Positions 3,099 through 32,071 of a stretch of DNA of 35,359 nt are shown one piece after another. The position numbers and the translations under genes are program-made. The stretch comes from a virus. Lineage: Duplodnaviria > Heunggongvirae > Uroviricota > Caudoviricetes. Within the stretch, counting starts at the first letter, position 1, and the number at the start of each line of letters is the position of its first letter. The stretch is from the IMG/VR virus record IMGVR_UViG_2545824719_000022, positions 1 to 35,359 of that record; one strand, 5' to 3'. The notes under the pieces are model-generated. The model saw nothing but the letters and a program-made list of their open reading frames with translations. It searched no databases and was not told where the DNA came from.

Positions 3099-3577
3099 TA
3101 TCCCGCCCCCGTCATACCCGTGAATTTAGTCGCCATACTGCCAGCCTTACCGATGAGCGATTCCGCCTGTTTACCGATATCGCCATAAAGCGCGGCCAGT
3201 GATTCATCAACGCGGGTGAGCGACAGCGTAAAATCAATTTTCCGGGGTGTGCCGTCTGCAAAGAAAATACTCCCTGTTTCACTCACCTTGCTGATGACAT
3301 ACATGCCGTAAATCATGCCGGTGCCATCCAGCAACGGCCACGCCCGCCCCTCCTCTGCCATCAGCCTGAGCGTGGTCATCGTCAGCTTGCCGCCGGTCAG
3401 TTCGGGATAAAGCACACCGGCAAGCGTGATGTTTTCCTCACCCACACCGAGAAACTGAAAAGCGTCCCGTTTACCGATACGGGAATTTGACGGCCAGCGA
3501 TAATCTGATTCACGCTGCATGGTCTGGTGTGGCAGCGTCTGGCGCATAAAAACAAACATACCTAACGCGAGCATCAT
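3098..3577 (-). CDS. U: Tail protein gpU
   Basis: 159-aa ORF with ATG start; stop overlaps the D start (TAATG); P2 gpU-like, in synteny. Confidence 0.88.
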   Translation of the reverse strand: MMLALGMFVFMRQTLPHQTMQRESDYRWPSNSRIGKRDAFQFLGVGEENITLAGVLYPELTGGKLTMTTLRLMAEEGRAWPLLDGTGMIYGMYVISKVSETGSIFFADGTPRKIDFTLSLTRVDESLAALYGDIGKQAESLIGKAGSMATKFTGMTGAG

Positions 3578-3591
3578 TTTTCGTCACCTCC

Positions 3592-6039
3592 TTAACCGTC
3601 ATGCATCATGCTGGCACGGGCGCGCGCACGTTTATCCCGCTCGTATTTTTCGAGTGCATCCTGTAACTGGCGGTCGAGCTGTATCCCCGGCGTAGTACCG
3701 CCCGTCAGGTTGATGTGATATTCGTTTTTACTCTGGTCCACATAAGAGCGGCCAGCCGGTGCCGTGACCGGCTGATAAGCCTGATAACCTGCATAAGAGC
3801 TGGCCGCCGGAATATAACCACCGGTGCCATACGTGGCGGCATGAGTTCTGGCGGCGGTCTGGTCAAGCGTGCCTGACTCTTTGTTGATGACGCCGAGTTT
3901 TTCCAGTACCCAGTCAATACCGCCGCGCAGTTTGTTGAACGCATTAAGCGGCAGCATCAGCGCGTCAGCCAGTGCCTGCCCGAACATGACGCCCGTGTCA
4001 CGGCAACGGTTCAGGGTGTCCTGGGTGGCTTTGACCGGGGCAATCAGGTTTTTAAACCACTGCCACGCGGCCTGTAACTTTTCGCCCAGCCAGTCAAACA
4101 CCGGTTTAAGTGGCGTGAACAGTTCCCCCACCGGCGCAAATGCCGCTTTCAGCCCTTCCACCACACCGCCAAAGAATGCGCTGACAGGCTCCCAGTATTT
4201 ACGGATAAGCAACGCCCCGGCGACAATGGCGGCCACCACGGCCACAACCGGCCAGCTAATCGCCCCGATGGCCGTCATAACAGCACTGCCAACCGTCGTG
4301 AAGATTGCCCCCATTGCGCCTGCTGCCGCGATGATGGCATTGATGCCGGTGATAACCGGCCAGGCTACGAGGCCAATGGCACCGATGACACCAATCAGTG
4401 CCAGTGCACCACCGACAATGATGCCGATGGTTGACGCCAGTGATTTGTTTTTCTGGATCCAGCCGTCGAGTTTTAACACATACTTTGTGGCCGTCTGCGT
4501 GAGCTTACGCAGTGCGCCTTCCTGCTGGTCAAACAGGTCTGTCCCCACCGCCTCATAAGCGGACTGAAACTCCTTAAAGTCACCGCCGAGGTTGTCCTGC
4601 ATGATTTTAACCAGCTCTGCGGTCTTTCCGTCTGAGGCTTTAAACGCAGCGGTCAGTTTGTCCAGCTTTCCGGTTGAGGCGGCAGTCATCAGCACGGCGG
4701 CGGCTGAGCTGGCCTCCTCCCCGAAAATGGTTTTCATATATTCAGCCTGCTGGGCAGTACCGAGCCGGTTTTTCTCAAAACTGGCCTGCATTTCTTTCAG
4801 AATGGTAAATACTGGTCGGGTGTTTCCCTTACTGTCTGAGGTTTTCACTCCAAGCTCTTTGAGTGCATCCCATGCTTTTCCCGTCGGTGCCTGCAGGCGG
4901 CTTAACACGGCACGGCTTCCCGTCCCCGCCATTGAACCGGTAATTTTTGCATCATGCAGCGCCCCGACCATTGCGGCGGTTTCTTCAATGCTGACACCGG
5001 CATTTTTTGCCACAGGTGCGGCATAGGTCAGCGCATCGCTCATGCCGTCAAAATCGGCGGCGGTTTTGTTCATCGTCATGGAGAGAACATCCCCGATATG
5101 AGCGACCTTATCGTTTGAAAGCTGAAAGGCGGATTTCATCCCCATCAGCAGGGCGGCGTTTTCTTCCATCGTGCGGCGGTTCGCCAGCGCCATGTTCAGC
5201 GTGACCGGCGTTGCCGCCTGAATGGCATCAACATCCCCACCGGCTTTCGCAATAATAATCTGCGCACCGGCTGCATCATCTGCCGAGGCGGCGGTATTGT
5301 CGCCGAGCTGGCGCGCCTGTTTGCGTAATGCGGCCATTTCGGCGGAGTCTTTTGCCACACCGAGCACGGCCTGCAATTCTGAGTTTTTCTGCGCAAACTC
5401 ATAACCGGGCATCAGCAGCTTAACACCGACCATCGTTCCCGCAGCAGCAATCCCCACACCGGCAGCGCCCACTGAGGCCATATTTCCGGCCAGTTCTTTT
5501 CCGGCCTGATAACGCTGTTTGACTGCGTTAAGTTTTGCCTGTTGTGCACTGACACGCGCCAGTGCGTCGCGCTGACGGTTAAGCTGTGCGGTGGTTTCAC
5601 TGATACGGTTTTTCAGCCCCTGCTCATCATGTGCAAGATTGCGGGTATTAATTCCCACAGCGGCCAGTTCCCGCTGCTGGCGTTTAACGGAATCCGTCAG
5701 GCGGTTATATTTCGCCTGTAAGTCCTCCGCCGCTCGCTTTGCTGATTCCAGCACTTTCGCCTGAGCACGTGTCGGACGTTCGGTGTTTTTAAACTGTGTG
5801 GCAAGGGCTTCGGCCTCCTGCCGTGCCTTTTCAAGTGCATGACCAGTCACGGCGAGCTGTGCGCTGGTCTTGCGGAATCCCTCAATACGGGATGCGTGAC
5901 CGTTCAGCTCGCGCAGTGATTTTTGTGTTTCCCGGATATCCCCCGACAGCGACTTACTCGCTGTGCGGATGGATTTAAACGGGCGGGACGCCTGGTCAAC
6001 AGCCCTGAGCAATACCTGTAATTTTACATTGTTACTCAT
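3592..6039 (-). CDS. T: Tail tape measure protein gpT
   Basis: 815-aa ORF with ATG start; coiled-coil-rich N-terminus, hydrophobic central segment, Gly/Ala-rich stretches typical of tape measure proteins; position between E/E' and U. Confidence 0.9.
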   Translation of the reverse strand: MSNNVKLQVLLRAVDQASRPFKSIRTASKSLSGDIRETQKSLRELNGHASRIEGFRKTSAQLAVTGHALEKARQEAEALATQFKNTERPTRAQAKVLESAKRAAEDLQAKYNRLTDSVKRQQRELAAVGINTRNLAHDEQGLKNRISETTAQLNRQRDALARVSAQQAKLNAVKQRYQAGKELAGNMASVGAAGVGIAAAGTMVGVKLLMPGYEFAQKNSELQAVLGVAKDSAEMAALRKQARQLGDNTAASADDAAGAQIIIAKAGGDVDAIQAATPVTLNMALANRRTMEENAALLMGMKSAFQLSNDKVAHIGDVLSMTMNKTAADFDGMSDALTYAAPVAKNAGVSIEETAAMVGALHDAKITGSMAGTGSRAVLSRLQAPTGKAWDALKELGVKTSDSKGNTRPVFTILKEMQASFEKNRLGTAQQAEYMKTIFGEEASSAAAVLMTAASTGKLDKLTAAFKASDGKTAELVKIMQDNLGGDFKEFQSAYEAVGTDLFDQQEGALRKLTQTATKYVLKLDGWIQKNKSLASTIGIIVGGALALIGVIGAIGLVAWPVITGINAIIAAAGAMGAIFTTVGSAVMTAIGAISWPVVAVVAAIVAGALLIRKYWEPVSAFFGGVVEGLKAAFAPVGELFTPLKPVFDWLGEKLQAAWQWFKNLIAPVKATQDTLNRCRDTGVMFGQALADALMLPLNAFNKLRGGIDWVLEKLGVINKESGTLDQTAARTHAATYGTGGYIPAASSYAGYQAYQPVTAPAGRSYVDQSKNEYHINLTGGTTPGIQLDRQLQDALEKYERDKRARARASMMHDG

Positions 6040-7046: not shown

Positions 7047-8237
7047 TTAATTGCTGTTAACCGAAGTGACCAGATTTGCCAGGTATTTATCGGTAATACG
7101 CTGGCGCAGGGTCAGGTTTTCAAGAGGAGGCACCGGTGTATAGTCGTAGTCGATATACAGTTTTCCGGCCTTGAGGGTTTCCGCATCGTTGGATTCTTCG
7201 CTGAACCAGCAGGTCGCATCCACGATATAGCCGTTTGTTTTCAGCTCACGGAATTTGGCATTGATGCCGTCAACGATGTCGCGAATCAGCGTTGCGGTGA
7301 TGGGCTTGTCCACCGCCCACATGTGCGCCTCAGCCATCGTGTCGGCCAGCACCTGCGCGGTGCGGGTATAGTTTTCAAAGAGGAACAGCGGGTCATCAGA
7401 GCAGGTACGGTTACCCCAGAAGCGGAAACCGTCGCGGCGAATCAGCGTAGTGACGCCTGACTCGTTAAGCAGGTCAGCATCGGTGCCGAACTCCTGCAAA
7501 TCCCAGAATACAGATGCGCTGATGCCGGTAACACCATTTACCCCGACGTTGGACAACGTTTTATGCCAGCCCTGCTCCTGGTCGATTTTAGCACGCAGCC
7601 CCAGCGCACGGGCGGTGGCATACGCGGTGGCGGTGGTGCTGCTGACCGTATCCCATGCGAGGAAATCCGGCCAGATGACCATCAGCTCACGCTGGCTGAA
7701 ATTCTGGCGGTAGGCTTTCACCTCGGAAATGGTTTTACAGCCCCATGCGCTGATATACCCGAAAGCGCGCAGCTTCTGACAGACTGATGCCAGTGCAACA
7801 GCCACCTCTTTGGTGTCCAGTCCCGGCACGCCGAGAATACGCGGTTTAACACCGGTTACTGACTCCGCCGCCAGCAGGGCTTTCAGTCCGGTGTACTGAC
7901 CGTTTTCGTCGGTGGTGCCGATGATATTGGAAACGGTCTGCGCAAGTTTCGTTTCTTCGTCGTCGCCGGTGCCGTCTTCCACGCGCACGACAACGGTGAC
8001 CGGTTTTGACTGGTCAGCGATGGCCTGCAACGATGCCGCCAGCGTGCCTTTTTTACCGGCCTTTGCAATTGCGCTCTGCACATTGGTAATCAGCACAGGT
8101 TTATTGAGGGGGAAGGTTTCCGCATCCGCATCGCTGGCCGTGCAGACCATGCCGACAATGGCAGTGGATACAGTGGAAATGACGCGGGTGCCGTCGTTAA
8201 TCTCCAGCACCTGCACGCCGTGATGATAGTCACTCAT
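7047..8237 (-). CDS. FI: Contractile tail sheath protein gpFI
   Basis: 396-aa ORF with ATG start; P2 FI-like; first gene of the FI-FII-E-T-U-D block. Confidence 0.9.
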   Translation of the reverse strand: MSDYHHGVQVLEINDGTRVISTVSTAIVGMVCTASDADAETFPLNKPVLITNVQSAIAKAGKKGTLAASLQAIADQSKPVTVVVRVEDGTGDDEETKLAQTVSNIIGTTDENGQYTGLKALLAAESVTGVKPRILGVPGLDTKEVAVALASVCQKLRAFGYISAWGCKTISEVKAYRQNFSQRELMVIWPDFLAWDTVSSTTATAYATARALGLRAKIDQEQGWHKTLSNVGVNGVTGISASVFWDLQEFGTDADLLNESGVTTLIRRDGFRFWGNRTCSDDPLFLFENYTRTAQVLADTMAEAHMWAVDKPITATLIRDIVDGINAKFRELKTNGYIVDATCWFSEESNDAETLKAGKLYIDYDYTPVPPLENLTLRQRITDKYLANLVTSVNSN

Positions 8238-8723
8238 CCGTTTAACTCCGTGGTTAATGGGTGCAACTATTTTCTGTTGGGCAGTGCATGAGACGCTATT
8301 TGACCTGGCTGGTCAGTGGATGAAACAACAGATAAAGAAAATGCGGGCAATTCCCCCCGCCAGTCCTGATTTGCACTCACTCATTCTCCAACTGGCTACT
8401 TACATAGCCCAAACGCTATCAAATCTGACAGTCTGCTTTGAGCGATCTGCGGACATTACTAACAGCATTCTGTATGAATAACGGGGGGTAGATCATTCCT
8501 GTCCTCACGACGACGCCTATCTATCATACAGTCGTTCTTTGGATCAAGACGCGTTCTGAAATGGTGTTTTTATGTATGTGCTGAATTCTGGGGCATAGAG
8601 TAAACCTTTCAAATTGCCAGAAACAGAAATGTGCGATTTAGTTGTCAAGTAATACCGGATAATTCAGCGATTCATCAAGAAATCATCGACCAGGCTGCTG
8701 TACATTCTCATCGGACGATTTTA

Positions 8724-9590
8724 CTATTCCTCAAGATCGCAGTTACTGCAATGACCTTCCATCCGGAATGCACCACATTCACAAGGCTCCATAGGAACAA
8801 AACCATCCATCTTGCTGTATTCACATTTATACCAGAGACAGACACCGACCCTTTGTTCCGGTAAATAAATTACGGATGGGACACTACATTCAGGACATTC
8901 CTGAAAATCCCAAGTTTGCAGATTATTCAGGCTGAAACCACAACAGATACAGTGAGTCCGTGCCGGAAAGCTTTCACTTTGGTAAAGGATAAAATGTGAA
9001 AAACTCTCACAAACGGGACAAAGTGCAAGGGTGTATTCCTGGTTAACAGTTATATCAAGGAATTGTTGCTCAAGAGCGATGATGTCTTGACGTAAATCAG
9101 AGTTCCATGAATTTTCGGTCTCATCTGACTGAATTATGACGAATGCGGGACGAAAAATTTGTTGGTACAGTTCACTCAGTTGCATTGCCAGTTCTTGCGG
9201 ACGAACCTCAAGGGCAAAATGCTGAAGGTTATTACGCAACTGACCCACCGTTTTCATCATTTGTAATGCAGATTCAGAAAATTCGGCTGGGTAATATGTC
9301 TTTAACAGCTTACAAAGCTGGTTGACGTTGACAGATTTACACTGGTGTAATTCTGACTCGGTTGGATGCGCCGGATCCACACATTTTTCTTGAAGCGATG
9401 CTGGATTAAAAATCGCTCCAGACCCATTGCGCGAAACTACGGCCTTCAACAATAGCTCAGCGGCCTGAAAGAGGTTAAGCAGGCACTGTTTGTAGTCACG
9501 TCGATCATGCCCTTCTAGCGCTTTGTTAAAGTAGTCCAGCCCGGTTTCCACTGAATCCAACGCATTTTCTAGTAAGTTAAAACGGACCAT
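8724..9590 (-). CDS. Cargo protein: HEPN-like N-terminal domain (Rx4H motif RNNLQH) plus C-terminal cysteine-rich multi-zinc-ribbon region; candidate defence/abortive-infection effector
   Basis: 288-aa ORF with ATG start in an AT-rich insert. N-terminal 130 aa are helical-looking, with R119-x4-H124. C-terminal 100 aa carry CPVC, HCICC, CPEC, CLWYKC, CEC and CSNC motifs. No P2 backbone counterpart. Confidence 0.55.
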   Translation of the reverse strand: MVRFNLLENALDSVETGLDYFNKALEGHDRRDYKQCLLNLFQAAELLLKAVVSRNGSGAIFNPASLQEKCVDPAHPTESELHQCKSVNVNQLCKLLKTYYPAEFSESALQMMKTVGQLRNNLQHFALEVRPQELAMQLSELYQQIFRPAFVIIQSDETENSWNSDLRQDIIALEQQFLDITVNQEYTLALCPVCESFSHFILYQSESFPARTHCICCGFSLNNLQTWDFQECPECSVPSVIYLPEQRVGVCLWYKCEYSKMDGFVPMEPCECGAFRMEGHCSNCDLEE

Positions 9591-9753
9591 ATTAAAGCCC
9601 CCCGAATAGGCATCGTCGTTATGCCAGCGCTTCCGCCAGTTACACAGATAGTGATTGTACCCACGAATATTGGGAACCTATTTTAGCATGTTTAACTTTA
9701 GTAGTACTGACACAACATTCATGGAGCGGACTGATTGACTTTTGGGGCGTGTA

Positions 9754-9782
9754 TTTACAAACTCACTACAATGCTGTATAAT
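9754..9782 (+). promoter_or_regulatory. Near-consensus sigma70 promoter TTTACA-N17-TATAAT reading + (opposite to flanking genes)
   Basis: TTTACA at 9754-9759, a 17-bp spacer, then perfect TATAAT at 9777-9782; lies about 140 bp upstream of the small ORF at 9921. Confidence 0.5.
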
Positions 9783-9920
9783 TCGTGAAGAGTGAATTTA
9801 GCTAGTGCATCCATAGGTTCGATTCCTATGCCTACAATTCTCATCACAGCTCTCCCAATAGTCGCATTTATCCGTTACCTCAACGTGTTACTTAACGATT
9901 ACGTCAGTAAGGAGAAGCCT

Positions 9921-10097
9921 ATGAGTAAATTATTCCGCCATGTAGTACTACTATATGTATCTTGTTTCATTGAAACTTTTTGGGCTGGGGTGATAAGTGT
10001 AGTAGCGGGTCTGATGACGGGCGGTGTCCAAATTATTTTGGCACTAGCTAAATCTTCTCAATTTTTGTTTTTTTATTCAAAGCACTTACCCCCATAA
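9921..10097 (+). CDS. Small hydrophobic protein (58 aa), probable membrane peptide
   Basis: ATG preceded by a strong SD AAGGAG with 6-nt spacing. Product MSKLFRHVVLLYVSCFIETFWAGVISVVAGLMTGGVQIILALAKSSQFLFFYSKHLPP is largely hydrophobic (1-2 predicted TM helices). The track's longer 101-aa version starts at GTG 9792, right at the predicted transcription start. Confidence 0.45.
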   Translation: MSKLFRHVVLLYVSCFIETFWAGVISVVAGLMTGGVQIILALAKSSQFLFFYSKHLPP

Positions 10098-10374
10098 ATA
10101 TTATTTAAATCAATAAACTAAGTCACTCTACGCATATTTTCCTTATCATGGTCTTTCGTGTTTTTTGTACTCAACATGATCGTTTCTCCTTTCTTTAATA
10201 CACAGTATGATTAGCTACGCCTTCTGTTGGAGCGAAGTGGACGAGTTAATTGAGCTGAATGTCAGCTATGAGCGAGGAACGGACTTCAAGAAAGTACCTA
10301 ACTGCGTATCGATTGCAAAATATGACAGTCTAACGGTGTTAAGGGCCATGAGTGCAGCCCTTAAGAAAAAAGTA

Positions 10375-11310
10375 TTAATAATATTTCCTGGCTTGCGCGC
10401 TCGTTTCGGTTAAGTTTATTTCATGGTAGTGATTATTTATAAAGTCACAAAAAGTACTAATTTTATCTTTGAGATTACTCATGCTATGCGTGATTTCGTC
10501 GTATAAATCGCTTTCCTCCTGATTTCGACAGTGGTCACCGGGATTTATAAAACTAAAAGTATCATTTGGTGCTGAATAATTATATGGAGCTTTTCTAAAC
10601 AAGATAATTAGATCACGCCAGGCCGTTGCAAAATCAATTGTAACATTCTTTAAAGCTGTATCATTCAGTTGAAAAACAGGTGAGTTTAAAATGTTCAAAA
10701 TATTATCGTATTCTTCAATAATTAATGAATGAATGTATTTTGCGCCCCACTGCAAATGTTCTATTGTTGAATGAAAATCAATAACATTCAACAATGTCGA
10801 CAAATTTGAGATATCTCTCTTGCGCAAAAATTCTTCCCTCGTCGGTTGGTGTCGTTCGAACATTTGCGGGTAGTACATTTTGAGTACAGCTGGGTCTTTG
10901 CTTAAATCAAAGCTAATATCCTCCCAGAAAACCACATCGACAGGAAACAGGCCTTTTAATTGTCTGGCATCATTGAGTGTTCTTACATAGCGCTGAATGC
11001 TAACATCCCTGGGCGCTGTCGTAGCGATGTAAAGAACCGTAATTTTTGGGCGAAATTTTTCAGCCTTGAGTAATTCATCATCGATTGTCGCCGTACTGAT
11101 TCCTGATACTGTATTTTTACACTGAATTCCAACGAAACGCCCAAGAGAGTAATCACCATATACATCAACTCCATCCTGCCGCTGCCCTGACCGTCCATGT
11201 CTGTTCAGATTAGGATTGGACCATCGCAGTTGGAATGAACTTTTGCACATATCCTCAAATTCGTCCCAAGATTTAGGGGGGGGTAACAACATTGAATTAT
11301 ATGTAACCAC
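10375..11310 (-). CDS. Cargo protein: Mrr-like PD-(D/E)xK restriction-endonuclease-fold N-terminal domain plus uncharacterised C-terminal domain; candidate defence nuclease
   Basis: 311-aa ORF with GTG start 7 nt after SD AAGGA (alternative ATG at 11292). N-terminus shows W..FE..C....F, then DGVDVYG, then GIQCK, then hydrophobic beta-strand-like segments (ITVLYIATT, VDVVFWEDIS): the typical Mrr catalytic-domain layout. AT-rich. Confidence 0.6.
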   Translation of the reverse strand: MVTYNSMLLPPPKSWDEFEDMCKSSFQLRWSNPNLNRHGRSGQRQDGVDVYGDYSLGRFVGIQCKNTVSGISTATIDDELLKAEKFRPKITVLYIATTAPRDVSIQRYVRTLNDARQLKGLFPVDVVFWEDISFDLSKDPAVLKMYYPQMFERHQPTREEFLRKRDISNLSTLLNVIDFHSTIEHLQWGAKYIHSLIIEEYDNILNILNSPVFQLNDTALKNVTIDFATAWRDLIILFRKAPYNYSAPNDTFSFINPGDHCRNQEESDLYDEITHSMSNLKDKISTFCDFINNHYHEINLTETSAQARKYY

Positions 11311-11785
11311 TTACTAATCCTTTATCTAAGATTCTTCATTTTTGTAATCACTATCATAATCATGCTTGATGTGCAATATCTTATTTGCCATGGTTATATG
11401 ACGTGAACATAATATATGCTGTAAGTATAAGCAGAATTTATTAATGGTGTTCGCCACTCAACGTAATGGTTTCACACTCTAAGGCTCTTTTTTAATAAAT
11501 CAAAACATTATGGACAGTGAATCATATCGGAAATGGTTCCTTTTAAATTGAATAACGGCCATAGTACACAGGTGTATGTGTTAATCGATTTTTCAGACGT
11601 TTTTTTCGCCTAACATGAGATTTCGTTCGATTAAGCACCAGACCCAATTACCACTATTTAATGAGTACAATTGCTTTACTTTAGGTCGAGTAGTAGTAAC
11701 GTCCGCTCTTGGCACAGAGCGGACTGTCAGATTAGGCTTTACTCTGTGCCATAGATATGTAATCTCACACCAGAGCTTATACAAC

Positions 11786-12313
11786 TTATTGCGGCATTTC
11801 CGGCCATTCAGGATTTGCAGGATCCACACGGCTGACCAGAACACTGTAGCGTTCCCATGCTTCCAGTCGGCTACGCTCCTCATCTGTTGCCATGTTCAGC
11901 CTGACAGCGCGCTCCAGTGGCAAAATCACGGATTCAGCATCTGCAAGAAGTCTGGCTTTCCGGTTTTCTGCCTGCTGCTGCAATTCCTCTGCCGTATAAA
12001 TGCGTTTAATCACTTTGCCGTCCTTAAACATCCAGTTCCCTGAAATGTCCGCCCGTCGGTTAGCAGTAATATCCGCCACTTCAACCACACTTAATCCATC
12101 TGGTCTGATAGCTGTCACATCCTTTTCCACATAGCGGATAATATTATCTTTGTCGTACGCTATTTTTATCGTGTCATCAGCAAAATACTTTTGTTCTTCG
12201 TACCAGTTCTTACCATCTTCTGAAAAAAACCAGACAACATCAAAGTCCTTTGTCAATTGATATTGTTCAACCGTTTTTGGATTACCCACCGTTATATTTA
12301 TCAAATGCTGCAT
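11786..12313 (-). CDS. G: Tail fibre assembly protein gpG
   Basis: 175-aa ORF with ATG start directly downstream of H; P2 G/Tfa-like sequence. Confidence 0.85.
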
Positions 12314-23765: not shown

Positions 23766-25538
23766 ATGACCATCACCACAGACACCACTCTTTTACACGA
23801 CCCGCGTCGTCAGGCGGCGCTGCTGTACTGGCAGGGATTTTCCGTGCCGCAGATTGCCGCCATGTTGCAGATGAAGCGCCCGACGGTGCAGAGCTGGAAA
23901 CAGCGCGACGGCTGGGACAGCGTTGCTCCCATCAGCCGTGTCGAAATGAGTCTGGAAGCGCGGCTGACCCAGCTCATCATCAAACCGCAGAAAACCGGCG
24001 GTGACTTCAAGGAAATTGACCTGCTCGGACGCCAGATTGAACGACTGGCGCGGGTCAACCGTTACAGCCAGACCGGCAACGAGGCAGACCTTAATCCGAA
24101 CGTTGCTAACCGCAACAAAGGCGGGCGTCGCAAACCGAAAAAGAATTTTTTCAGTGACGAGGCCATCGAAAAGCTGGAGCAGATTTTCTTTGAGCAGTCT
24201 TTCGACTATCAGTTGCACTGGTATCGCGCCGGGCTTGAGCACCGCATCCGCGATATCCTGAAATCCCGCCAGATTGGCGCGACGTTTTATTTTTCCCGCG
24301 AGGCGCTGCTGCGCGCCCTGAAAACCGGTCATAACCAGATTTTTCTGTCGGCCAGTAAAACGCAGGCGTATGTGTTCCGTGAATACATCATCGCCTTTGC
24401 CCGGCTGGTTGACGTTGACCTGACCGGTGACCCGATTGTCCTGGGCAATAACGGCGCAAAACTGATTTTTCTCGGCACCAACTCCAACACCGCACAGAGC
24501 CATAACGGCGACCTGTACGTCGACGAGATTTTCTGGATCCCGAATTTTCAGGTACTGCGTAAGGTGGCATCAGGTATGGCCTCACAGAGTCACCTGCGCT
24601 CGACCTATTTCTCCACCCCGTCCACGCTGGCGCACGACGCCTACCCGTTCTGGTCGGGTGAACTGTTCAACCGGGGACGCGCCAGCGCCGCCGAACGTGT
24701 GGAAATCGACGTCAGTCATAACGCCCTTGCCGGTGGTCTTCTCTGTGCGGACGGCCAGTGGCGGCAGATTGTCACCATTGAGGACGCCCTGAAAGGTGGC
24801 TGCACGCTGTTCGACATTGAGCAGCTCAAACGCGAAAACAGCGCCGACGATTTTAAAAACCTGTTCATGTGTGAATTTGTTGACGACAAGGCGTCAGTGT
24901 TCCCGTTCGAGGAGCTGCAACGCTGCATGGTCGACACGCTGGAAGAATGGGAAGACTATGCGCCGTTTGCCGCCAATCCGTTCGGCTCACGTCCGGTATG
25001 GATTGGTTACGACCCGTCACACCGTGGCGACAGCGCCGGATGCGTGGTGCTGGCACCGCCGGTGGTGGCCGGTGGCAAATTCAGAATACTTGAGCGTCAC
25101 CAGTGGAAAGGCATGGATTTTGCCACTCAGGCGGAATCCATCCGCAAACTCACCGAAAAATACAACGTCGAATACATCGGTATTGATGCCACCGGCCTCG
25201 GTGTCGGCGTGTTCCAGCTCGTGCGCTCGTTCTATCCCGCCGCGCGCGATATCCGCTACACGCCGGAAATGAAAACCGCAATGGTGCTCAAGGCAAAAGA
25301 CGTTATTCGCCGTGGCTGTCTGGAATATGACGTCAGCGCCACCGACATCACCAGCTCGTTCATGGCTATCCGCAAGACCATGACCAGCAGCGGACGCAGC
25401 GCCACCTATGAGGCCAGCCGCAGCGAGGAAGCCAGCCACGCCGACCTCGCATGGGCGACCATGCACGCTCTGTTAAATGAGCCACTCACCGCCGGTATCA
25501 GCACCCCGCTGACATCCACCATTCTGGAGTTTTACTGA
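23766..25538 (+). CDS. P: Terminase ATPase (large) subunit gpP
   Basis: 590-aa product from ATG at 23766 (SD GAGGT upstream): MTITTDTTLLHDPRRQAALLYWQGFS...; P2 P-like. Stop overlaps the Q start (TGATG). Confidence 0.9.
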   Translation: MTITTDTTLLHDPRRQAALLYWQGFSVPQIAAMLQMKRPTVQSWKQRDGWDSVAPISRVEMSLEARLTQLIIKPQKTGGDFKEIDLLGRQIERLARVNRYSQTGNEADLNPNVANRNKGGRRKPKKNFFSDEAIEKLEQIFFEQSFDYQLHWYRAGLEHRIRDILKSRQIGATFYFSREALLRALKTGHNQIFLSASKTQAYVFREYIIAFARLVDVDLTGDPIVLGNNGAKLIFLGTNSNTAQSHNGDLYVDEIFWIPNFQVLRKVASGMASQSHLRSTYFSTPSTLAHDAYPFWSGELFNRGRASAAERVEIDVSHNALAGGLLCADGQWRQIVTIEDALKGGCTLFDIEQLKRENSADDFKNLFMCEFVDDKASVFPFEELQRCMVDTLEEWEDYAPFAANPFGSRPVWIGYDPSHRGDSAGCVVLAPPVVAGGKFRILERHQWKGMDFATQAESIRKLTEKYNVEYIGIDATGLGVGVFQLVRSFYPAARDIRYTPEMKTAMVLKAKDVIRRGCLEYDVSATDITSSFMAIRKTMTSSGRSATYEASRSEEASHADLAWATMHALLNEPLTAGISTPLTSTILEFY

Positions 25539-26572
25539 TGAGCAAGAAAAAAGGGAAAACACCGCAACCTGCGGCAAAAAAAATGACCGCCAGCGCCCCG
25601 AAAATGGAGACATTCACCTTTGGTGAGCCGGTGCCGGTACTCGACCGCCGTGACATTCTGGATTACGTCGAGTGCATCAGTAACGGCAGATGGTATGAGC
25701 CACCGGTCAGCTTTACCGGTCTGGCAAAAAGCCTGCGTGCTGCCGTGCATCACAGCTCACCGATTTACGTTAAACGCAATATTCTGGCCTCGACATTTAT
25801 CCCGCATCCGTGGCTTTCACAGCAGAATTTCAGCCGCTTTGTGCTGGACTTTCTGGTGTTCGGTAATGCGTTTCTGGAAAAGCGATACAGCACCACCGGT
25901 AAGGTCATCAGACTGGAAACCTCACCGGCAAAATATACCCGCCGTGGCGTGGAAGAGGATGTTTACTGGTGGGTGCCGTCCTTCAACGAGCCGACACCTT
26001 TCGCGCCCGGCTCCGTGTTTCACCTGCTGGAGCCGGATATTAATCAGGAGCTGTACGGTCTGCCGGAATATCTCAGCGCCCTTAACTCTGCCTGGCTGAA
26101 TGAGTCGGCCACGCTGTTCCGCCGCAAGTATTACGAAAACGGCGCACATGCCGGATACATCATGTACGTCACCGATGCCGTGCAGGACCGCAACGATATC
26201 GAAATGCTTCGCGAAAACATGGTCAAGTCGAAAGGCCGCAACAACTTTAAAAACCTGTTTCTCTATGCCCCACAGGGGAAAGCCGACGGCATTAAAATTA
26301 TCCCCCTCAGTGAAGTGGCGACGAAGGACGATTTTTTTAATATCAAAAAAGCCAGCGCCGCTGACCTGCTGGACGCGCACCGCATCCCCTTTCAGTTGAT
26401 GGGTGGCAAGCCGGAGAACGTCGGGTCGCTGGGTGATATTGAGAAAGTGGCAAAGGTCTTTGTCCGCAATGAACTTATCCCGTTACAGGACAGGATCCGC
26501 GAGATAAACGGCTGGCTCGGTCAGGAGGTCATCCGCTTTAAAAACTACTCACTGGACCCTGACAACGGCTGA
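25538..26572 (+). CDS. Q: Portal protein gpQ
   Basis: 344-aa ORF with ATG start; P2 Q-like; last gene before cos. Confidence 0.9.
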   Translation: MSKKKGKTPQPAAKKMTASAPKMETFTFGEPVPVLDRRDILDYVECISNGRWYEPPVSFTGLAKSLRAAVHHSSPIYVKRNILASTFIPHPWLSQQNFSRFVLDFLVFGNAFLEKRYSTTGKVIRLETSPAKYTRRGVEEDVYWWVPSFNEPTPFAPGSVFHLLEPDINQELYGLPEYLSALNSAWLNESATLFRRKYYENGAHAGYIMYVTDAVQDRNDIEMLRENMVKSKGRNNFKNLFLYAPQGKADGIKIIPLSEVATKDDFFNIKKASAADLLDAHRIPFQLMGGKPENVGSLGDIEKVAKVFVRNELIPLQDRIREINGWLGQEVIRFKNYSLDPDNG

Positions 26573-26741: not shown

Positions 26742-26760
26742 GTGCTTTCCCCGCCTCGCC
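26742..26760. other. cos site (19-nt cohesive end)
   Basis: GTGCTTTCCCCGCCTCGCC is the reverse complement of GGCGAGGCGGGGAAAGCAC, which I recall as the P2 cohesive-end sequence; it lies between Q and the right-end accessory region, as expected. Confidence 0.75.
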
Positions 26761-27075
26761 CGCCCGCTTCATGGGGCGGTTTTAATGCAGTTGCATGATG
26801 AAACTGAAATCACATCAGCACTGACCGAAACTGACAAAAAGAATAGTATCTGACACATGCAAAAACACGCACTTAATATACGCCTATCTATAGCTCCTAC
26901 AGGATTGTCAAAAAACGACCAACTCGTCATAGCGTAAACACATTTGGCTCAACGAACACTTACGTTATATGCCTCTTGCACATATCAAAGTCTTAAGGTA
27001 GATCTTTACCACTAAGTGGCTATATTAAGCTGCTTTTTTACATACAATAAAAGCTTTATCGTATGAGGCATAAAA

Positions 27076-29292
27076 ATGGAACTTAGATTAAAAAATGTTA
27101 CCAGTTATAAGAAAGACGCCTTCACAATACTGAATCTTGAAAAAAGAGTAAACATACTATACGGCCAAAATGGTTGTGGCAAATCTACCATTTCAAATTA
27201 TTTCTACGACTCTACACACACAGATTATAACGAGTGTGAATGTACCCTTCTTGACAATTACAAACCTCTTGTTTACAACACTAAATTTATTGAAGATAAT
27301 TTCTACAATGCACAGGAACAAAAAGGTGTTTTTACATTAAGTAAAGAAAATGCAGATATTGAAAAACAATTAATTAAAAAAGAAGCAATTAAACAGCAAC
27401 TTACAGAGCAATATAGACAAAAAAAAGGAGTGTTATTGAAATTAGAAGCAGAAATGGAAAAAAAAGAAAATGAATACATCGAATCGATCTGGAAAAAAAC
27501 AGAACCAATCAGAAACTCTGTACTAAAAATCTTAATGAAAGGTAAAGTTGGCTATAAAAGACCTTTTTTTGAGATGATAAAATCATCCTCACCAATCACC
27601 TTTATTAATTTAAATGATATAGCAAAAGAATACTCTATACTATTAGAAAATAGAAACAATGAAACCGCATTAATAACTCCTTTACACCCATATACCCCAT
27701 CAATTGATGATGTAAATACATTAGCAACACCTATAATAGATACAAGCAATAGCTATTTATCAGAAACCATTAATAAACTTCATAATCTTGACTGGGTAAA
27801 AAAAGGTAAAGAACATTATTTAGACGGTTCTACATGTCCGTTTTGTCAGGAAAAAACTATTAGTCGCGAATTTTTAAATGCCCTTAAATCAATATTTGAC
27901 GAAAGTTATTCAAAGAAAGTAAAACAGCTCTCAGATATAAAGTCAGTTTATGAGAAAAATACCATATATCATTTTAACGAAATACAAAACAATATATCAT
28001 CATGTGCACTAATCAATGAGAAAGATAAAGAGATCATTATTTCCAATATTAAAATATTGCAAAACATTGCAGAAAAAAATTTAATAAACATTATTGATAA
28101 GATCAACAATCCATCAACATGCGTTACATTAGAAATTGATAAAGAACTAGAAAATCATGTTCAGGAAAGCATAGACGCTGTTAACAAAAAAATAAGAGAC
28201 ATAAATGATAAGGTTAAAAAACTCAAAGAGTATGAGAATAAAATCGGAAAACAAGTTTGGGGGGCTCTCCATGCTTTTTGCAGCGATGATTTAGAGAATT
28301 TATCCAAACACAAAGAAAAATTCTTTGATATCAAAAAGAAAGTTCATGATGAATTAAATAATATTGAGCAACAAGGAAAAGAAAATAATCTCACAATAAA
28401 AGCATTGCGAGATAAAATATCTAACATTGATTCTACGATAGACTCAATAAACACCCATTTAAAAAATCTAGGGATCTCTGGTTTTTGTATTGAAAAACAT
28501 GCAGAAAGAAAAGATATGTACATTATATCTCGACCAGGGCATACAAAAAACCAAAATGTTTATAGATCTCTTAGCGAAGGTGAAAAAACACTAATAACGT
28601 TTCTTTATTTTTTAGAGTGCTGTAAAGGTAAAACCGATAAAAATGATACCGATAGCAGGGATATTTTTATTGTTATTGACGATCCAATATCTAGTCTATC
28701 GCAAAACTATGTCTACGACATCGCATCAATTATTCATCACCACATTATAAAAAATGAATTAACAAAGAAGGTATTAATCCTTACTCACAATCTTTATTTC
28801 TTTCATGAACTTATTAAGCTATCTCCTAAAAGCAGAGAAGACAAACTATTTAAGAAAAACTATTATCTAGGTAGAGTAACGAAAAATGATTTTAGTATAA
28901 TTACTGAAATACAAAAAAACAGCATACAGAATGAATATCAATCTTTGTGGCAAATATTAAAAGATGCAAAAGATGGCAAAGCAAACAAAATCATAATACC
29001 TAATATTATGAGAAACATACTAGAATATTATTTTGCATTTGTTCATAGAACAGATGCTCTACAAGATGAATTAACAAAGTTGGCACGCGACGATAGCAAC
29101 AGTGATTTCAAAGCATTCTACAGATACATTAACAGAGGTTCTCACTCTGATGCGGTAAATATTACTGATATGGGCGACATAGACCCAGATAAATACCTAA
29201 AACAATTGAGAACAATATTTTCAGCTACTGGTGACGAAATGCATTATTTAAAAATGATGGACGAACTAGAAGAGGAGAACGTTACCGCTTAG
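27076..29292 (+). CDS. Cargo protein: RloC/PrrC-family anticodon nuclease-like ABC/Rad50-type ATPase (738 aa)
   Basis: Motifs read from the translation: Walker A GQNGCGKST near the N-terminus; long Lys/Glu-rich coiled-coil with central CPFC zinc-hook-like motif; ABC signature-like LSEGEK; Walker B IFIVIDDP; H-loop LILTHN; C-terminal R-x3-E (RNILEYY) and N-x2-S-H (NRGSHSD) resembling the PrrC/RloC anticodon-nuclease catalytic motifs. Very AT-rich; ATG preceded by GAGG. Confidence 0.65.
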   Translation: MELRLKNVTSYKKDAFTILNLEKRVNILYGQNGCGKSTISNYFYDSTHTDYNECECTLLDNYKPLVYNTKFIEDNFYNAQEQKGVFTLSKENADIEKQLIKKEAIKQQLTEQYRQKKGVLLKLEAEMEKKENEYIESIWKKTEPIRNSVLKILMKGKVGYKRPFFEMIKSSSPITFINLNDIAKEYSILLENRNNETALITPLHPYTPSIDDVNTLATPIIDTSNSYLSETINKLHNLDWVKKGKEHYLDGSTCPFCQEKTISREFLNALKSIFDESYSKKVKQLSDIKSVYEKNTIYHFNEIQNNISSCALINEKDKEIIISNIKILQNIAEKNLINIIDKINNPSTCVTLEIDKELENHVQESIDAVNKKIRDINDKVKKLKEYENKIGKQVWGALHAFCSDDLENLSKHKEKFFDIKKKVHDELNNIEQQGKENNLTIKALRDKISNIDSTIDSINTHLKNLGISGFCIEKHAERKDMYIISRPGHTKNQNVYRSLSEGEKTLITFLYFLECCKGKTDKNDTDSRDIFIVIDDPISSLSQNYVYDIASIIHHHIIKNELTKKVLILTHNLYFFHELIKLSPKSREDKLFKKNYYLGRVTKNDFSIITEIQKNSIQNEYQSLWQILKDAKDGKANKIIIPNIMRNILEYYFAFVHRTDALQDELTKLARDDSNSDFKAFYRYINRGSHSDAVNITDMGDIDPDKYLKQLRTIFSATGDEMHYLKMMDELEEENVTA

Positions 29293-29541
29293 GCCGCATA
29301 TTATCGTTTTGGGTAAGAACGACGGTGCTTACGCACCGTCTCCCAACGCCCAAAGCGGTAGCGGTTGTACTGGCGTACATTCACTAGCTTTAACATGAGG
29401 CAATCTCCATGCCAGCACTATTGTTGCCAATAGCAGCCTTTATACCCTTTGTACAAAGCTAATACCAAGAGTAATGCAAAGTAGATGTCCCAAGCGGTAA
29501 CGGGGCTATTCTATGTCAAACACAGAAATAATCAAAGCGCC

Positions 29542-31806
29542 CTATGAATCCCCCCAACCATCAGCGACCGGATACGTGAATTTTTTCCCGTCATAATTTA
29601 CGGTCGCTCTACGCGCCAGCGCCTCAAGCTCCCATCGCTGCGGCCTGATACCGTTCTGAGCAAGGTCAACGCGGATACGGGTGATTTGCAATCGTTCAGA
29701 CCTGGTCAGTCTGGCAGATGGTGCAATTTCATGCGGTTTTAACGGGCTTCCGTTTCTTTGCTGACGGTTTGGCGTTCTCAGGTCGTATTTTAATGCGCCC
29801 CTGAGCGCCCTCACGACCTCCGGTTCATTCCATTCAATAACACCGTCATCAACCAGATTAAGCACTGCTGCGGCGTGCTCAGAAGGTGTGGGAGCCGGTA
29901 ACGAAGTATCACCACCGGTGAGCTTTCCACAGTTATTGACAGGACTCCGAGGCGCGGCGATGCCGCTTTTTAAAGTCAAGGGCTCAACGACCGGAACTTT
30001 CGGCACAATGCGCCAGTCCGTCGTTCTGGTGATATGAATATGACGCGCGCCGAGATGCGGCGCGTAAATGCCGACCACTCTCTCGACTTCTTCCTCGTAC
30101 TCGTTAACGTCATCCGACGGGCTACGGGCGACCCTGACAGTCTGACAATCGCGCGGGACATTTGCCCCGCCCTGCGCGCTGATATACAACGCAAAATCAC
30201 CACTGTCTGCAGCGGCGCGTGCAGCCTCGACGCGCTCGTCAAACTCATCAGCAATGCTGACGCCGCGAGGCAATTTGCGTAGTTCACGGTAAGCCCCCAT
30301 TGTCGGCAGACCAACCGTTTTAAATTGCGGAATGCGCCACGTTGACGCCCATGCGGTAACAGCCGCTGCAGTGTCTTTCAGCGGCCTGCCGGTATCGTTA
30401 TTGAGCTGACCATCCAGTGCATAGCCGTCGATATTTTTTGAGATGTATTTTGCGATATATCCCGCAGCACCGCCCCGGTTAAGGTGTTTTGCCTGAAAAC
30501 GGTTTCGCGCGGCTCCTCTTTCGTCACCATCCTCTTTGAGCGCATAGCGACGCATGATTTCGATAATCTGGTTACGCTGGCGTGGATTACAAAAAAGCAT
30601 CATATGCCAGTGCGGCGTTCCGTCGTGGTGTGGCTCGACGACACGCAAACCGTAGACCTGTAAATCATTATCCTTGAATGCCGTGCGCATCAGGCTCCAG
30701 ATGCGGCAGAGATAACGCTGCGCATCCTTTGGATTAAATGCCTCATCGTTCCAGCCGTGATTAAGCTGAACGGTTTTACTTTCGCCTTTTCTGACCTGAC
30801 GAGTCGGGTGATACTTTGACGGCGCGGTAAGCGTGATAAACATCCCCACATCACCCTCTGCGGCGGCGTAACGCTCAATACCGGCAATGGTGTTCATCAG
30901 CTCCATCCGGCGAATTTCAGGATTAGAAATACTGCCCATCACCTTACTGATAAGGTCGATGCGCTCGCCGGTTTCCCTGTTTTCAAGGTCACACGATTTA
31001 AGAAATTCCAGATTTGCCTGGCGGCGTGCACGCACATCACGAATGGCATGTTTACTGGCATAAGGAGAGCGGTCTTTATTGACCTCCCCGACAGCAATCA
31101 GTAACGCCTCATGCCAGCGCATACGCTGGCCTTTAAGCTGATGAGTCCACCACTCATCGTTAAACAGACGGGCAATGGCAGAATATGCCTGCCTCGTGGT
31201 CATCTGTCCTTTACGGTATTTTTTCCAGTAGAGCGGGGAAATATTGAAAGCTCGTGCAGCGCCAGCAACATGACCATAGAGGTGAGCCTGCGCCTCATCC
31301 GTAAACAGCGATTCTTTTTCGCCATGTGCATCAACCCAGGCATCGCAGAGTTCCTCATACATCATGAAAAGCTGCGATGAGATACGGGCAGCAAACTTTT
31401 TCAGCTCCTTGTCATTCATCCCCGGCAGGCGCGCATACTGGTCGCGCTCTGCCAGAAACAGCAACGACGCGTCGGTGTTCATTTCATGGCGCTGATTCAC
31501 ACGCTCAATGCGCGGCCATAAACGACGCTGAAAAGTGGATGTGAGGAAATAAAACCCGTGCACCGGGCTTTTATTGCGCCGGATGTAGTCATAGCGTGAA
31601 GTAAACAGCGAGCGCAAAAAGTAAGGCAGGCGGTTAATCGTGGATAAAACACCTTGCACCTGACGCATCTCGTCACGTGTAAGGGGTCTTTCGCGCCCGA
31701 GGGCCTCGCGTGGCGCGTTCCATGCATAAGCACCGGTAAACATCTTACCGGTGCCTGCGGCAAATGCTGACGGAGGGACAAAACGCCCGGAGGCTTTAAC
31801 GGCCAT
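29542..31806 (-). CDS. A: Replication initiation protein gpA (rolling-circle nickase)
   Basis: P2 A-like sequence, including the HUH-type HWHMMLF motif and paired tyrosines (YIAKYISK). Start placed at ATG 31806 (MAVKASGRF...); the track ORF begins at an upstream TTG (31848). Confidence 0.85.
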   Translation of the reverse strand: MAVKASGRFVPPSAFAAGTGKMFTGAYAWNAPREALGRERPLTRDEMRQVQGVLSTINRLPYFLRSLFTSRYDYIRRNKSPVHGFYFLTSTFQRRLWPRIERVNQRHEMNTDASLLFLAERDQYARLPGMNDKELKKFAARISSQLFMMYEELCDAWVDAHGEKESLFTDEAQAHLYGHVAGAARAFNISPLYWKKYRKGQMTTRQAYSAIARLFNDEWWTHQLKGQRMRWHEALLIAVGEVNKDRSPYASKHAIRDVRARRQANLEFLKSCDLENRETGERIDLISKVMGSISNPEIRRMELMNTIAGIERYAAAEGDVGMFITLTAPSKYHPTRQVRKGESKTVQLNHGWNDEAFNPKDAQRYLCRIWSLMRTAFKDNDLQVYGLRVVEPHHDGTPHWHMMLFCNPRQRNQIIEIMRRYALKEDGDERGAARNRFQAKHLNRGGAAGYIAKYISKNIDGYALDGQLNNDTGRPLKDTAAAVTAWASTWRIPQFKTVGLPTMGAYRELRKLPRGVSIADEFDERVEAARAAADSGDFALYISAQGGANVPRDCQTVRVARSPSDDVNEYEEEVERVVGIYAPHLGARHIHITRTTDWRIVPKVPVVEPLTLKSGIAAPRSPVNNCGKLTGGDTSLPAPTPSEHAAAVLNLVDDGVIEWNEPEVVRALRGALKYDLRTPNRQQRNGSPLKPHEIAPSARLTRSERLQITRIRVDLAQNGIRPQRWELEALARRATVNYDGKKFTYPVADGWGDS

Positions 31807-32071
31807 ATGAGCCAAAAGCCTCTGAACAACGCCTGCTGAGTTGCTCAACCTGCGCGTTTAAATCAGCAAAAGACTTTGCGCTTCCGGTCAGAATATCGTG
31901 ATGCATCAGGCCGGAAACGAGCTGGCTTAATTTCGGATAATAACCAACCACCGCCAGCCATTCCTGACCGGCGTTTTTACCGCTTTCCGCTCTCTTTTTC
32001 TCGTGGAGAATAAACTGAAAGCTGTCACTGGTAACGACATAACGTTCGCCAATTTCAATACGAATACTCAT
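31796..32071 (-). CDS. Early-operon hypothetical protein (91 aa)
   Basis: ATG start overlapping the upstream stop (ATGA); lies between the TraR-like gene and A. Confidence 0.55.
   Translation of the reverse strand: MSIRIEIGERYVVTSDSFQFILHEKKRAESGKNAGQEWLAVVGYYPKLSQLVSGLMHHDILTGSAKSFADLNAQVEQLSRRCSEAFGSYGR

Follow-up and report, generated by a model that had tools for sequence, protein, structure and literature searches.

A P2-like prophage carries an RloC-family gene and a conserved 31-codon micro-ORF in its cos-proximal cargo slot

The DNA analysed here, referred to throughout as the window, comprises 35,359 nucleotides (nt), positions 1 to 35,359 of the IMG/VR virus record IMGVR_UViG_2545824719_000022. 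It represents a P2-like prophage, whose terminase, portal, capsid and gene A match those of peduoviruses and of P2-type prophages of Escherichia coli. Between its cos site and replication gene A, the prophage carries a large gene for a protein of 738 amino acids (aa) with the features of the RloC anticodon nucleases and, convergent with it, a micro open reading frame (micro-ORF) of 31 codons. An earlier reading of the same DNA, made from the sequence only, had described the large gene as an RloC/PrrC-like anticodon nuclease in the accessory slot where P2 carries tin and old. We report the evidence bearing on that proposal, as well as the conservation of the micro-ORF and its linkage to the nuclease gene.

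The cargo slot and its two genes

The RloC-like gene is the sole large ORF between cos and gene A, and the landmarks and base composition agree with the sequence-only reading, which had placed a single very AT-rich gene there (Table 1). Its G+C content (GC) is 29.5%, with 24.9% at third codon positions, in a window of 50.9% GC, and that of the whole cassette falls to about 28%. In phage P2, the slot between cos and gene A is the one that carries tin and old (PMC9122126). That the gene lies in this slot was confirmed by an exact copy of the cos sequence, by the portal gene and gene A as landmarks, and by comparison with peduoviruses carrying other cargo, in which homology to the window stops at 26795-26877 and restarts at 29551-29559.

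Table 1. Features of the cargo slot and its surroundings, in window coordinates.
Feature	Position	Strand	Remarks
Portal gene Q	25538-26572	+	
P2 cos cohesive-end sequence GGCGAGGCGGGGAAAGCAC	26742-26760	-	Exact 19-nt match, 0.01 expected by chance; left landmark of the hotspot
Variable cargo cassette, P2 cos-proximal (tin/old) hotspot	~26878-29550		Approximate limits
Shine-Dalgarno-like GAGG	27065-27068	+	7 nt before ATG; read from the sequence
RloC-family gene, 738 aa, ATG start	27076-29292	+	Identical to WP_000423309, annotated 'AAA family ATPase'
Walker A/P-loop GQNGCGKS, aa 30-37	27163-27186	+	
Helical coiled-coil-type insert, ~aa 88-465	27337-28470	+	Between Walker A and ABC signature; AlphaFold2 model
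CPFC zinc-hook-like motif, aa 254-257	27835-27846	+	Model loop 250-263 between helices
ABC signature LSEGE, aa 499-503	28570-28584	+	
Walker B/D-loop FIVIDDPISSL, aa 531-541 (Walker B FIVIDD, 531-536)	28666-28698	+	Included in BLASTP alignment to PrrC
H-loop (linchpin) His571	28786-28788	+	Invariant; aligned to PrrC TTHS motif
Predicted C-terminal anticodon-nuclease (HEPN-type) domain, ~aa 615-738	28918-29289	+	R646, E650, R683, N686, S689, H690, invariant H723-Y724
Micro-ORF, 31 aa, MLKLVNVRQYNRYRFGRWETVRKHRRSYPKR, net charge +10	29301-29396 (29396->29301)	-	Convergent with RloC-like gene, ends 8 nt from its stop codon
Shine-Dalgarno GGAGA	29404-29408	-	7 nt upstream of micro-ORF ATG; GGAG before the start codon in 8/8 diverged loci
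P2 replication gene A	29542-31848	-	Phage_GPA; right landmark of the slot

Architecture and family of the large protein

The Walker A, Walker B, ABC signature and H-loop motifs named in the sequence-only reading were all found at the places given for them, and each was invariant in an alignment of 26 homologues (22-66% identical). Residues G30, G33, G35, K36, C254, P255, C257, E501, G502, E503, D535, D536, H571 and R646 did not vary in this alignment, and among the predicted catalytic residues R646 was kept in 26, E650 in 25 and H690 in 23 of the 26 sequences. Being invariant or nearly so, these motifs are far from chance. In an AlphaFold2 model of the protein, with a mean predicted local distance difference test score (pLDDT) of 83.7, the ATPase head is split by a long helical insert of about 375 aa and the C-terminal domain is also helical; the long helices of the insert cover residues 90-141, 264-309, 315-344 and 356-448. 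The long coiled coil with a zinc-hook-like CPFC motif, also part of the earlier description, corresponds to this predicted insert, and CPFC is a predicted zinc hook. The top Foldseek matches were Rad50, SMC heads, Lamassu LmuB and PtuA-type ATPases, and those to Rad50, SMC and LmuB span only the ATPase head and the coiled coil. Sequence and model thus support a Rad50-like ABC head split by a CPFC-bearing helical insert and followed by a predicted C-terminal RNase of the PrrC/RloC type, a nuclease type that Anantharaman et al. (2013; PMC3710099) assigned to the HEPN superfamily.

The same alignment revealed a further motif near the C-terminus, which the sequence-only reading had missed. H723 is invariant and Y724 is kept in 25 of 26 sequences (consensus H-Y-x2-M-M; window 29241-29249, aa 723-725), even in homologues devoid of H690, and the motif lies beyond the reach of the hhalign alignment to PrrC described below. 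In a divergent subgroup of AAA_13 homologues, P0100 and P0108 retain the ATPase motifs, CPFC, R646 and E650 and lack N-x2-S-H with the catalytic His, and P0080 has Pro in place of that His; the subgroup may consist of nuclease-dead or differently wired relatives.

The Pfam family AAA_13, whose hidden Markov model had been suggested as a check, matched the full length of the protein (residues 17-716, E 6.7e-111). The best PADLOC model was PDLC04886 of the candidate system PDC-S06 (E 4.8e-254, full length), seven further PDC-S06 models also matched, and the PADLOC PrrC model matched residues 490-730 (E 1e-12). Weak PADLOC matches to LmuB and AriA were obtained as well, the latter at the level of the ATPase only. 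The protein also matched PHROG 2801, which has no assigned function, and a search of NCBIfam gave no match. Neither Toprim nor DUF4435, and neither Cap4 nor any other DNase domain, was detected with Pfam and PADLOC, which for Toprim agrees with the sequence-only reading. Homologues annotated as 'wobble nucleotide-excising tRNase' were 28-34% identical over 98% of the length, and no relative of PrrC or RloC was found in the PDB by sequence, profile or fold.

For the comparison with PrrC, a PrrC sequence was employed as search probe only, by which genuine hsd-embedded PrrC genes were retrieved. Those annotated 'anticodon nuclease' lie between hsdS and hsdR on E. coli and Salinivibrio plasmids, in loci of the order hsdM-hsdS-prrC-hsdR, and an equivalently placed gene of Zymomonas is annotated only 'AAA family ATPase'; in the alignment of the retrieved sequences R320, E324, S355 and H356 stand at the positions given in the literature. 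BLASTP against PrrC aligned only the ATPase motifs, the two halves of the head separately. By hhalign, an alignment of 196 columns (probability 94.9%, E 4.7e-8) was obtained that spans the nuclease domain and pairs R646, E650, N686, S689 and H690 with R320, E324, N352, S355 and H356 of PrrC. This pairing is in line with the earlier claim that the C-terminal motifs resemble the PrrC/RloC active site: they proved equivalent to the catalytic R, E and H of PrrC, and the best matches of the protein were not to OLD. RloC has been defined by the triad R-X3-E-X36-52-H, often with Ser before the His (PMC2610378). The C-terminal motifs of the window protein are R646-x3-E650 and N686-x2-S689-H690, the layout from E650 to H690 being given as x39-S689-H690, and both the X39 spacing and the Ser before the His fit that definition. 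The hallmarks of PrrC were absent, with no hsd genes in the cassette or in the window flanks and a length of 738 aa, including the ~375-aa insert, versus about 400 aa without insert. Collectively, these comparisons support the assignment of the protein to the RloC family.

With GkaRloC of Geobacillus kaustophilus and AbaRloC of Acinetobacter baylyi (COG 'wobble nucleotide-excising tRNase') the window protein shares the domain order and all defining motifs, and like them it is encoded by a single large gene without a linked hsd locus. It differs from them in its length (738 aa versus 804 in GkaRloC), in belonging to a gammaproteobacterial subclade only 28-35% identical to homologues named RloC, and in being encoded by phage cargo with a conserved 31-aa micro-ORF, which more distant homologues lack. 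PrrC of the E. coli prr locus has homologous ABC ATPase motifs and a homologous nuclease domain, with equivalent catalytic R, E and H and N-x2-S-H, and its role as a latent tRNase in suicide defence may, by analogy, apply to the window protein too. However, PrrC has ~396 aa and no coiled coil or zinc hook, always lies between hsdS and hsdR, and is silenced by the restriction-modification (R-M) enzyme and released by the 26-aa T4 peptide Stp, a context that the window does not have. P2 Old (ABC ATPase plus Toprim) and Tin occupy the same slot between cos and gene A, and Old is likewise an abortive nuclease under the control of an ABC ATPase, for which a 2026 preprint reports action on tRNA and a response to DNA-end or RecBCD status; its effector is Toprim, whereas that of the window protein is predicted to be of HEPN type, it has no zinc-hook coiled coil, and the sequences are unrelated beyond the P-loop. 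Structurally, the head and helical arm are matched best by Rad50/SbcC and LmuB, which have the CPxC hook in common with the window protein, and the proposed input is the sensing of DNA ends; Rad50/SbcC and LmuB work with separate nuclease subunits that act on DNA, whereas the window protein has its predicted RNase domain fused C-terminally.

The identification of this gene as RloC is not new. Table S1 of the founding RloC paper (2008) lists as number 51 the protein YP_852004 of avian pathogenic E. coli (APEC) O1, with 738 aa and flanked by phage replication and capsid genes. The APEC O1 genome has a single copy, in the same slot, whose product is identical to the window protein at 733 of 738 positions; YP_852004 is taken to be the product of this locus from its length, its uniqueness and its neighbours. 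Anantharaman et al. (PMC3710099) proposed that prophage-borne ABC-HEPN proteins typified by APECO1_4465, likely the same protein as YP_852004, exclude other phages. In Table S5A of Rousset et al. (2022; PMC9122126), WP_000423309, the exact window protein, is listed as 'AAA_13' in the P2 hotspot, and the AAA_13 system ranks fifth with 420 occurrences and the note 'RloC-like'; neither the AAA_13 nor the RloC label was found in the table of evaluated systems of that paper. System number 5 of PMC9122126, PDC-S06 and the ABC-HEPN group of Anantharaman et al. are catalogue entries for the same gene family in the same slot, and there the gene is treated as single. Our literature search retrieved no phage-challenge data for any RloC, the window protein included, and other papers mark RloC as 'not tested'. 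On its own, this identification merits little attention, because the protein has been counted as RloC since 2008 and as 'RloC-like' P2 cargo since 2022. New here is the micro-ORF, which makes the subclade a possible two-gene variant of RloC.

The window allele (at least 99% identical) is present in 44 of 5,426 complete E. coli genomes, enterotoxigenic (ETEC) and APEC strains among them; with diverged alleles included the number rises to 116, all chromosomal. A diverged allele, 65% identical at the protein level, is the sole cargo of the same slot and has all motifs intact. The ratio of non-synonymous to synonymous substitution rates (dN/dS) between the window and APEC O1 alleles was 0.17, calculated from only 12 differences, and the RloC-like gene is under purifying selection. 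Among more distant relatives, those of Yersinia occupy the P2 slot, and those of Xenorhabdus, Neptuniibacter, Serratia and Pseudomonas lie outside P2. In Yersinia enterocolitica (locus L018, 3001-7165) the slot is shared by the RloC-like gene, the micro-ORF and a reverse transcriptase of 499 aa (RVT_1). In Neptuniibacter (L020, 1-5193) two large uncharacterised genes (1482 and 706 aa) precede the RloC-like gene by a 20-nt gap, and the three may form a larger system. In a few E. coli genomes (H86, H118, H119 and H121-H123) the annotation divides the gene into two pieces called 'AAA family ATPase', and in the type strain ATCC 11775 / DSM 30083 only 86% of it is covered, in two places, which suggests interrupted or frameshifted versions of a potentially toxic gene. 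An apparently separate chromosomal context, with matches at record positions ~2515-4731, proved an artefact of where records begin: several complete E. coli records, such as NZ_OW967003.1 1-4731 (L006), start exactly at the P2 replication endonuclease gene (gene A) through assembly rotation.

The micro-ORF and its linkage to the nuclease gene

As a single-gene account of the locus, the sequence-only reading holds for the large gene and overlooked the conserved micro-ORF immediately downstream of it. The stretch of 249 nt that separates the RloC stop codon from gene A has one occurrence in each of 94 E. coli genomes and, in every listed case that was cross-checked, directly follows an RloC-like allele. 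This segment is 80-88% identical where the RloC coding sequences are 67-70% identical, and its higher conservation is due to the 31-codon ORF on the minus strand. The micro-ORF has a fixed length in five E. coli alleles, in which its variable sites are distributed 4/5/15 by codon position and dN/dS is ~0.05-0.29. With the Yersinia, Xenorhabdus, Neptuniibacter and Serratia loci added, the distribution is 12/11/23 and the median dN/dS 0.19, and the distance from the micro-ORF to the RloC stop codon ranges from 8 to 33 nt among the diverged loci. These substitution patterns constitute a clear coding signature, and point clearly to purifying selection on the predicted peptide. The peptide matches PHROG 21154, for which the function is given as unknown, and matched no Pfam family. 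In the RefSeq records examined the micro-ORF is unannotated, while some GenBank and UniProt entries carry it as a 'hypothetical' or 'uncharacterized' protein, and our literature search found no paper linking RloC with a small ORF.

Other readings of the region downstream of the nuclease gene were considered and rejected. For a tiny hydrophobic ORF on the plus strand (MPALLLPIAAFIPFVQS), inspection by eye found that substitutions are mostly non-synonymous and that the position of the stop codon shifts. A conserved structured RNA in the 250-nt tail was discarded given almost no covariation with RNAalifold (-0.92 and -0.56 kcal/mol on the two strands) and few double changes, and an Rfam search of the tail returned nothing. 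An 8-bp hairpin after the RloC stop codon, taken as a conserved terminator, is strong in three of four E. coli alleles (with one compensatory double change). In the O157 allele, and likewise in the loci of Yersinia, Xenorhabdus, Neptuniibacter and Serratia, it is weak, at -6 to -8 kcal/mol. The hairpin probably arises as a side effect of the sequence that encodes the peptide.

Repeats in the cassette were low-complexity chance matches, with the exception of one 11-mer. The sequence AAGCGGTA(A/G)CG has three exact copies within 223 bp, at 29280-29290 (-), 29353-29363 (+) and 29492-29502 (+), against an expectation of ~1.2 per whole window even with one mismatch allowed. The RloC stop codon is overlapped by the first copy, the second falls within the micro-ORF (codons N-R-Y-R-F), and the first and third are inverted relative to each other. 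The loci of Yersinia and Neptuniibacter retain a related motif, GTTAYCGCTTAGG, immediately past the stop codon of RloC.

The micro-ORF adjoins the RloC-like gene in every fetched locus whose RloC-like gene is at least 38% identical. The linkage was also tested in reverse by searching IMG/VR with the peptide profile alone, which yielded 22 loci. In 21 of them an RloC-like gene, 34-100% identical to that of the window, lies directly beside the peptide gene, and for three of these 21 the fetched stretch contains no gene A. One of the three, L043, has the pair oriented in the same direction, and adjacency thus survives inversion. It is also maintained without P2 genes (Xenorhabdus, Neptuniibacter, Serratia, L043-L045) and in L018, where a reverse transcriptase takes the place of gene A as neighbour. 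We therefore rejected the possibility that the peptide gene belongs to the P2 backbone as part of a gene A module, since it is absent from P2 loci with other cargo and present beside RloC-like genes without gene A. On this comparative evidence the linkage is solid, and we consider the RloC-like gene and the 31-aa peptide gene a predicted conserved two-gene unit.

Several observations weigh against a functional pairing of the two genes. Two peptide homologues (L015 and L046) occur without any RloC-like gene, the latter on a high-GC contig next to an SRAP gene, and RloC homologues of 31-35% identity have no micro-ORF. Moreover, kinship among P2 prophages means that many of the linked loci are not independent. 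The alternative is that the micro-ORF is a hitchhiking small gene or a translated remnant, its adjacency reflecting shared descent of one mobile cassette. That 18 of the 22 loci found through the peptide are P2-like prophages, together with the unpaired homologues on either side, speaks for it. Against it, adjacency holds while the RloC protein diverges to 34-45% identity, in contexts outside P2, beside the reverse transcriptase and after inversion, and the peptide evolves under purifying selection (median dN/dS as above). We regard hitchhiking as possible but less likely than not.

As for the conserved two-gene unit, our leading guess, drawn from gene linkage alone, is that the peptide is an accessory regulator of the nuclease, acting as silencer, antidote or trigger relay. 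A more specific version, which we put forward tentatively, is that RloC of this subclade is a two-component module, not a self-contained and internally switched enzyme, in which the basic peptide would mask the nuclease (antidote) or arm it (relay), comparable to the 26-aa T4 Stp and PrrC. In P2 prophages the micro-ORF follows immediately downstream of gene A, on that gene's strand, and may accordingly be transcribed with the early lytic operon. This arrangement suggests that control of the nuclease may be linked to the phage's own lytic programme; P2 could tie the state of the nuclease to early lytic growth, for example keeping it off while P2 replication makes DNA ends.

The L015 homologue (…VRQYRRFRFGEWEDVCHHRRSPPR) is located on the gut phage scaffold MT836130.1 between a large serine recombinase and a resolvase, with an AbiJ_NTD4 protein 2.3 kb away (scaffold regions 2689-2856 and 5173-6021). 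From this arrangement, the peptide family may also accompany other defence genes.

Proposed function and its alternatives

Previous work on GkaRloC and AbaRloC has shown that mutation of any triad residue abolishes anticodon nuclease (ACNase) activity and toxicity, and that mutation of the zinc hook deregulates the enzyme; that ATP hydrolysis and linear DNA activate RloC, which is active only while bound to that DNA; and that inducers of double-strand breaks (DSB) activate it in vivo even without host R-M, its natural substrates including tRNA-Glu and tRNA-Gln (PMC2610378, PMC3458546, PMC3874168). By analogy with these enzymes, we infer tRNA cleavage, DNA-damage sensing and phage defence for the window protein. 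A lysogen would carry a latent RloC-like enzyme that stays silent until DNA ends or breaks, or the breakdown of host DNA during superinfection, trigger it through ATP hydrolysis. The activated enzyme would cut tRNA anticodon loops, excising the wobble nucleotide, and translation would halt before the invader finishes its cycle, resulting in abortive infection. The best explanation as a whole, to which we give a probability of about 80%, is that the cassette carries an RloC-family nuclease as cargo for abortive infection triggered by DNA ends, in a conserved two-gene unit with the 31-aa peptide gene.

A real nuclease might serve the prophage or its host mainly in ways other than phage exclusion. 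It could, for instance, arrest growth or promote persistence once DNA has been damaged, or stabilise the prophage as an addiction module in which the peptide is the antidote. Nalidixic acid activates AbaRloC in the absence of phage, and a role in persistence has been discussed for it; a toxic enzyme with a tiny partner also resembles the logic of toxin-antitoxin pairs, and the literature search gave no phage-defence phenotype. We nevertheless consider such a role unlikely, in view of a slot that is a documented anti-phage hotspot with several validated examples, of PADLOC filing the family as a defence candidate and DefenseFinder-based surveys reporting an RloC category, and of alleles that are strongly diversified within one slot (65% aa identity), as is typical of defence genes.

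It is quite improbable that the enzyme works like PrrC, that is, held by a type I R-M enzyme encoded elsewhere and freed by a phage anti-restriction protein instead of DNA ends. The catalytic and ATPase motifs are common to both proteins, the 2008 table remarks on APEC O1 'encodes type I EcoK like', and the authors of RloC left control by R-M in trans open. However, prrC is always embedded in an hsd locus, whereas the cassette and its flanks contain no hsd genes; the coiled-coil insert with its CXXC has no counterpart in PrrC; an hsd-mutant background did not keep a DSB inducer from activating AbaRloC; and mobile phage cargo must function in hosts with differing R-M systems. Hardly credible, finally, is an SMC/Rad50-like ATPase for DNA repair or DNA restriction, of Lamassu or OLD type, with a C-terminal domain other than an RNase: the top structural matches and the weak LmuB and AriA matches favour it, but those structural matches end with the head and coiled coil, the searches for Toprim, Cap4 and other DNase domains were negative, and the C-terminal domain can be aligned with the PrrC nuclease, whose catalytic residues it retains.

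Elsewhere in the prophage, a second AT-rich island (window 8000-12300, GC 0.37-0.47) is flanked by tail genes and corresponds in position to the variable Z/fun slot of P2. Its ORF 8724-9590 (-), of 288 aa, matches the PADLOC candidate PDC-S64 (E 4e-21) and, more weakly, HEC-08, PDC-S19 and DUF3644, with no Pfam match, and may represent another defence candidate of this prophage, HEPN-like in kind; ORF 10375-11310 (-) gave no match.

An RloC borne by P2 in E. coli, a tractable host with a rich phage collection, is an obvious place for phage testing. In the accepted picture the zinc hook and ATPase of RloC act as an internal switch, which makes an external silencer unnecessary. A functional micro-ORF, if true, would revise this picture for the whole subclade and would provide a 31-aa handle on how a lethal tRNase stays quiet or is released. 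Single-gene entries in defence catalogues can conceal unannotated small partners.

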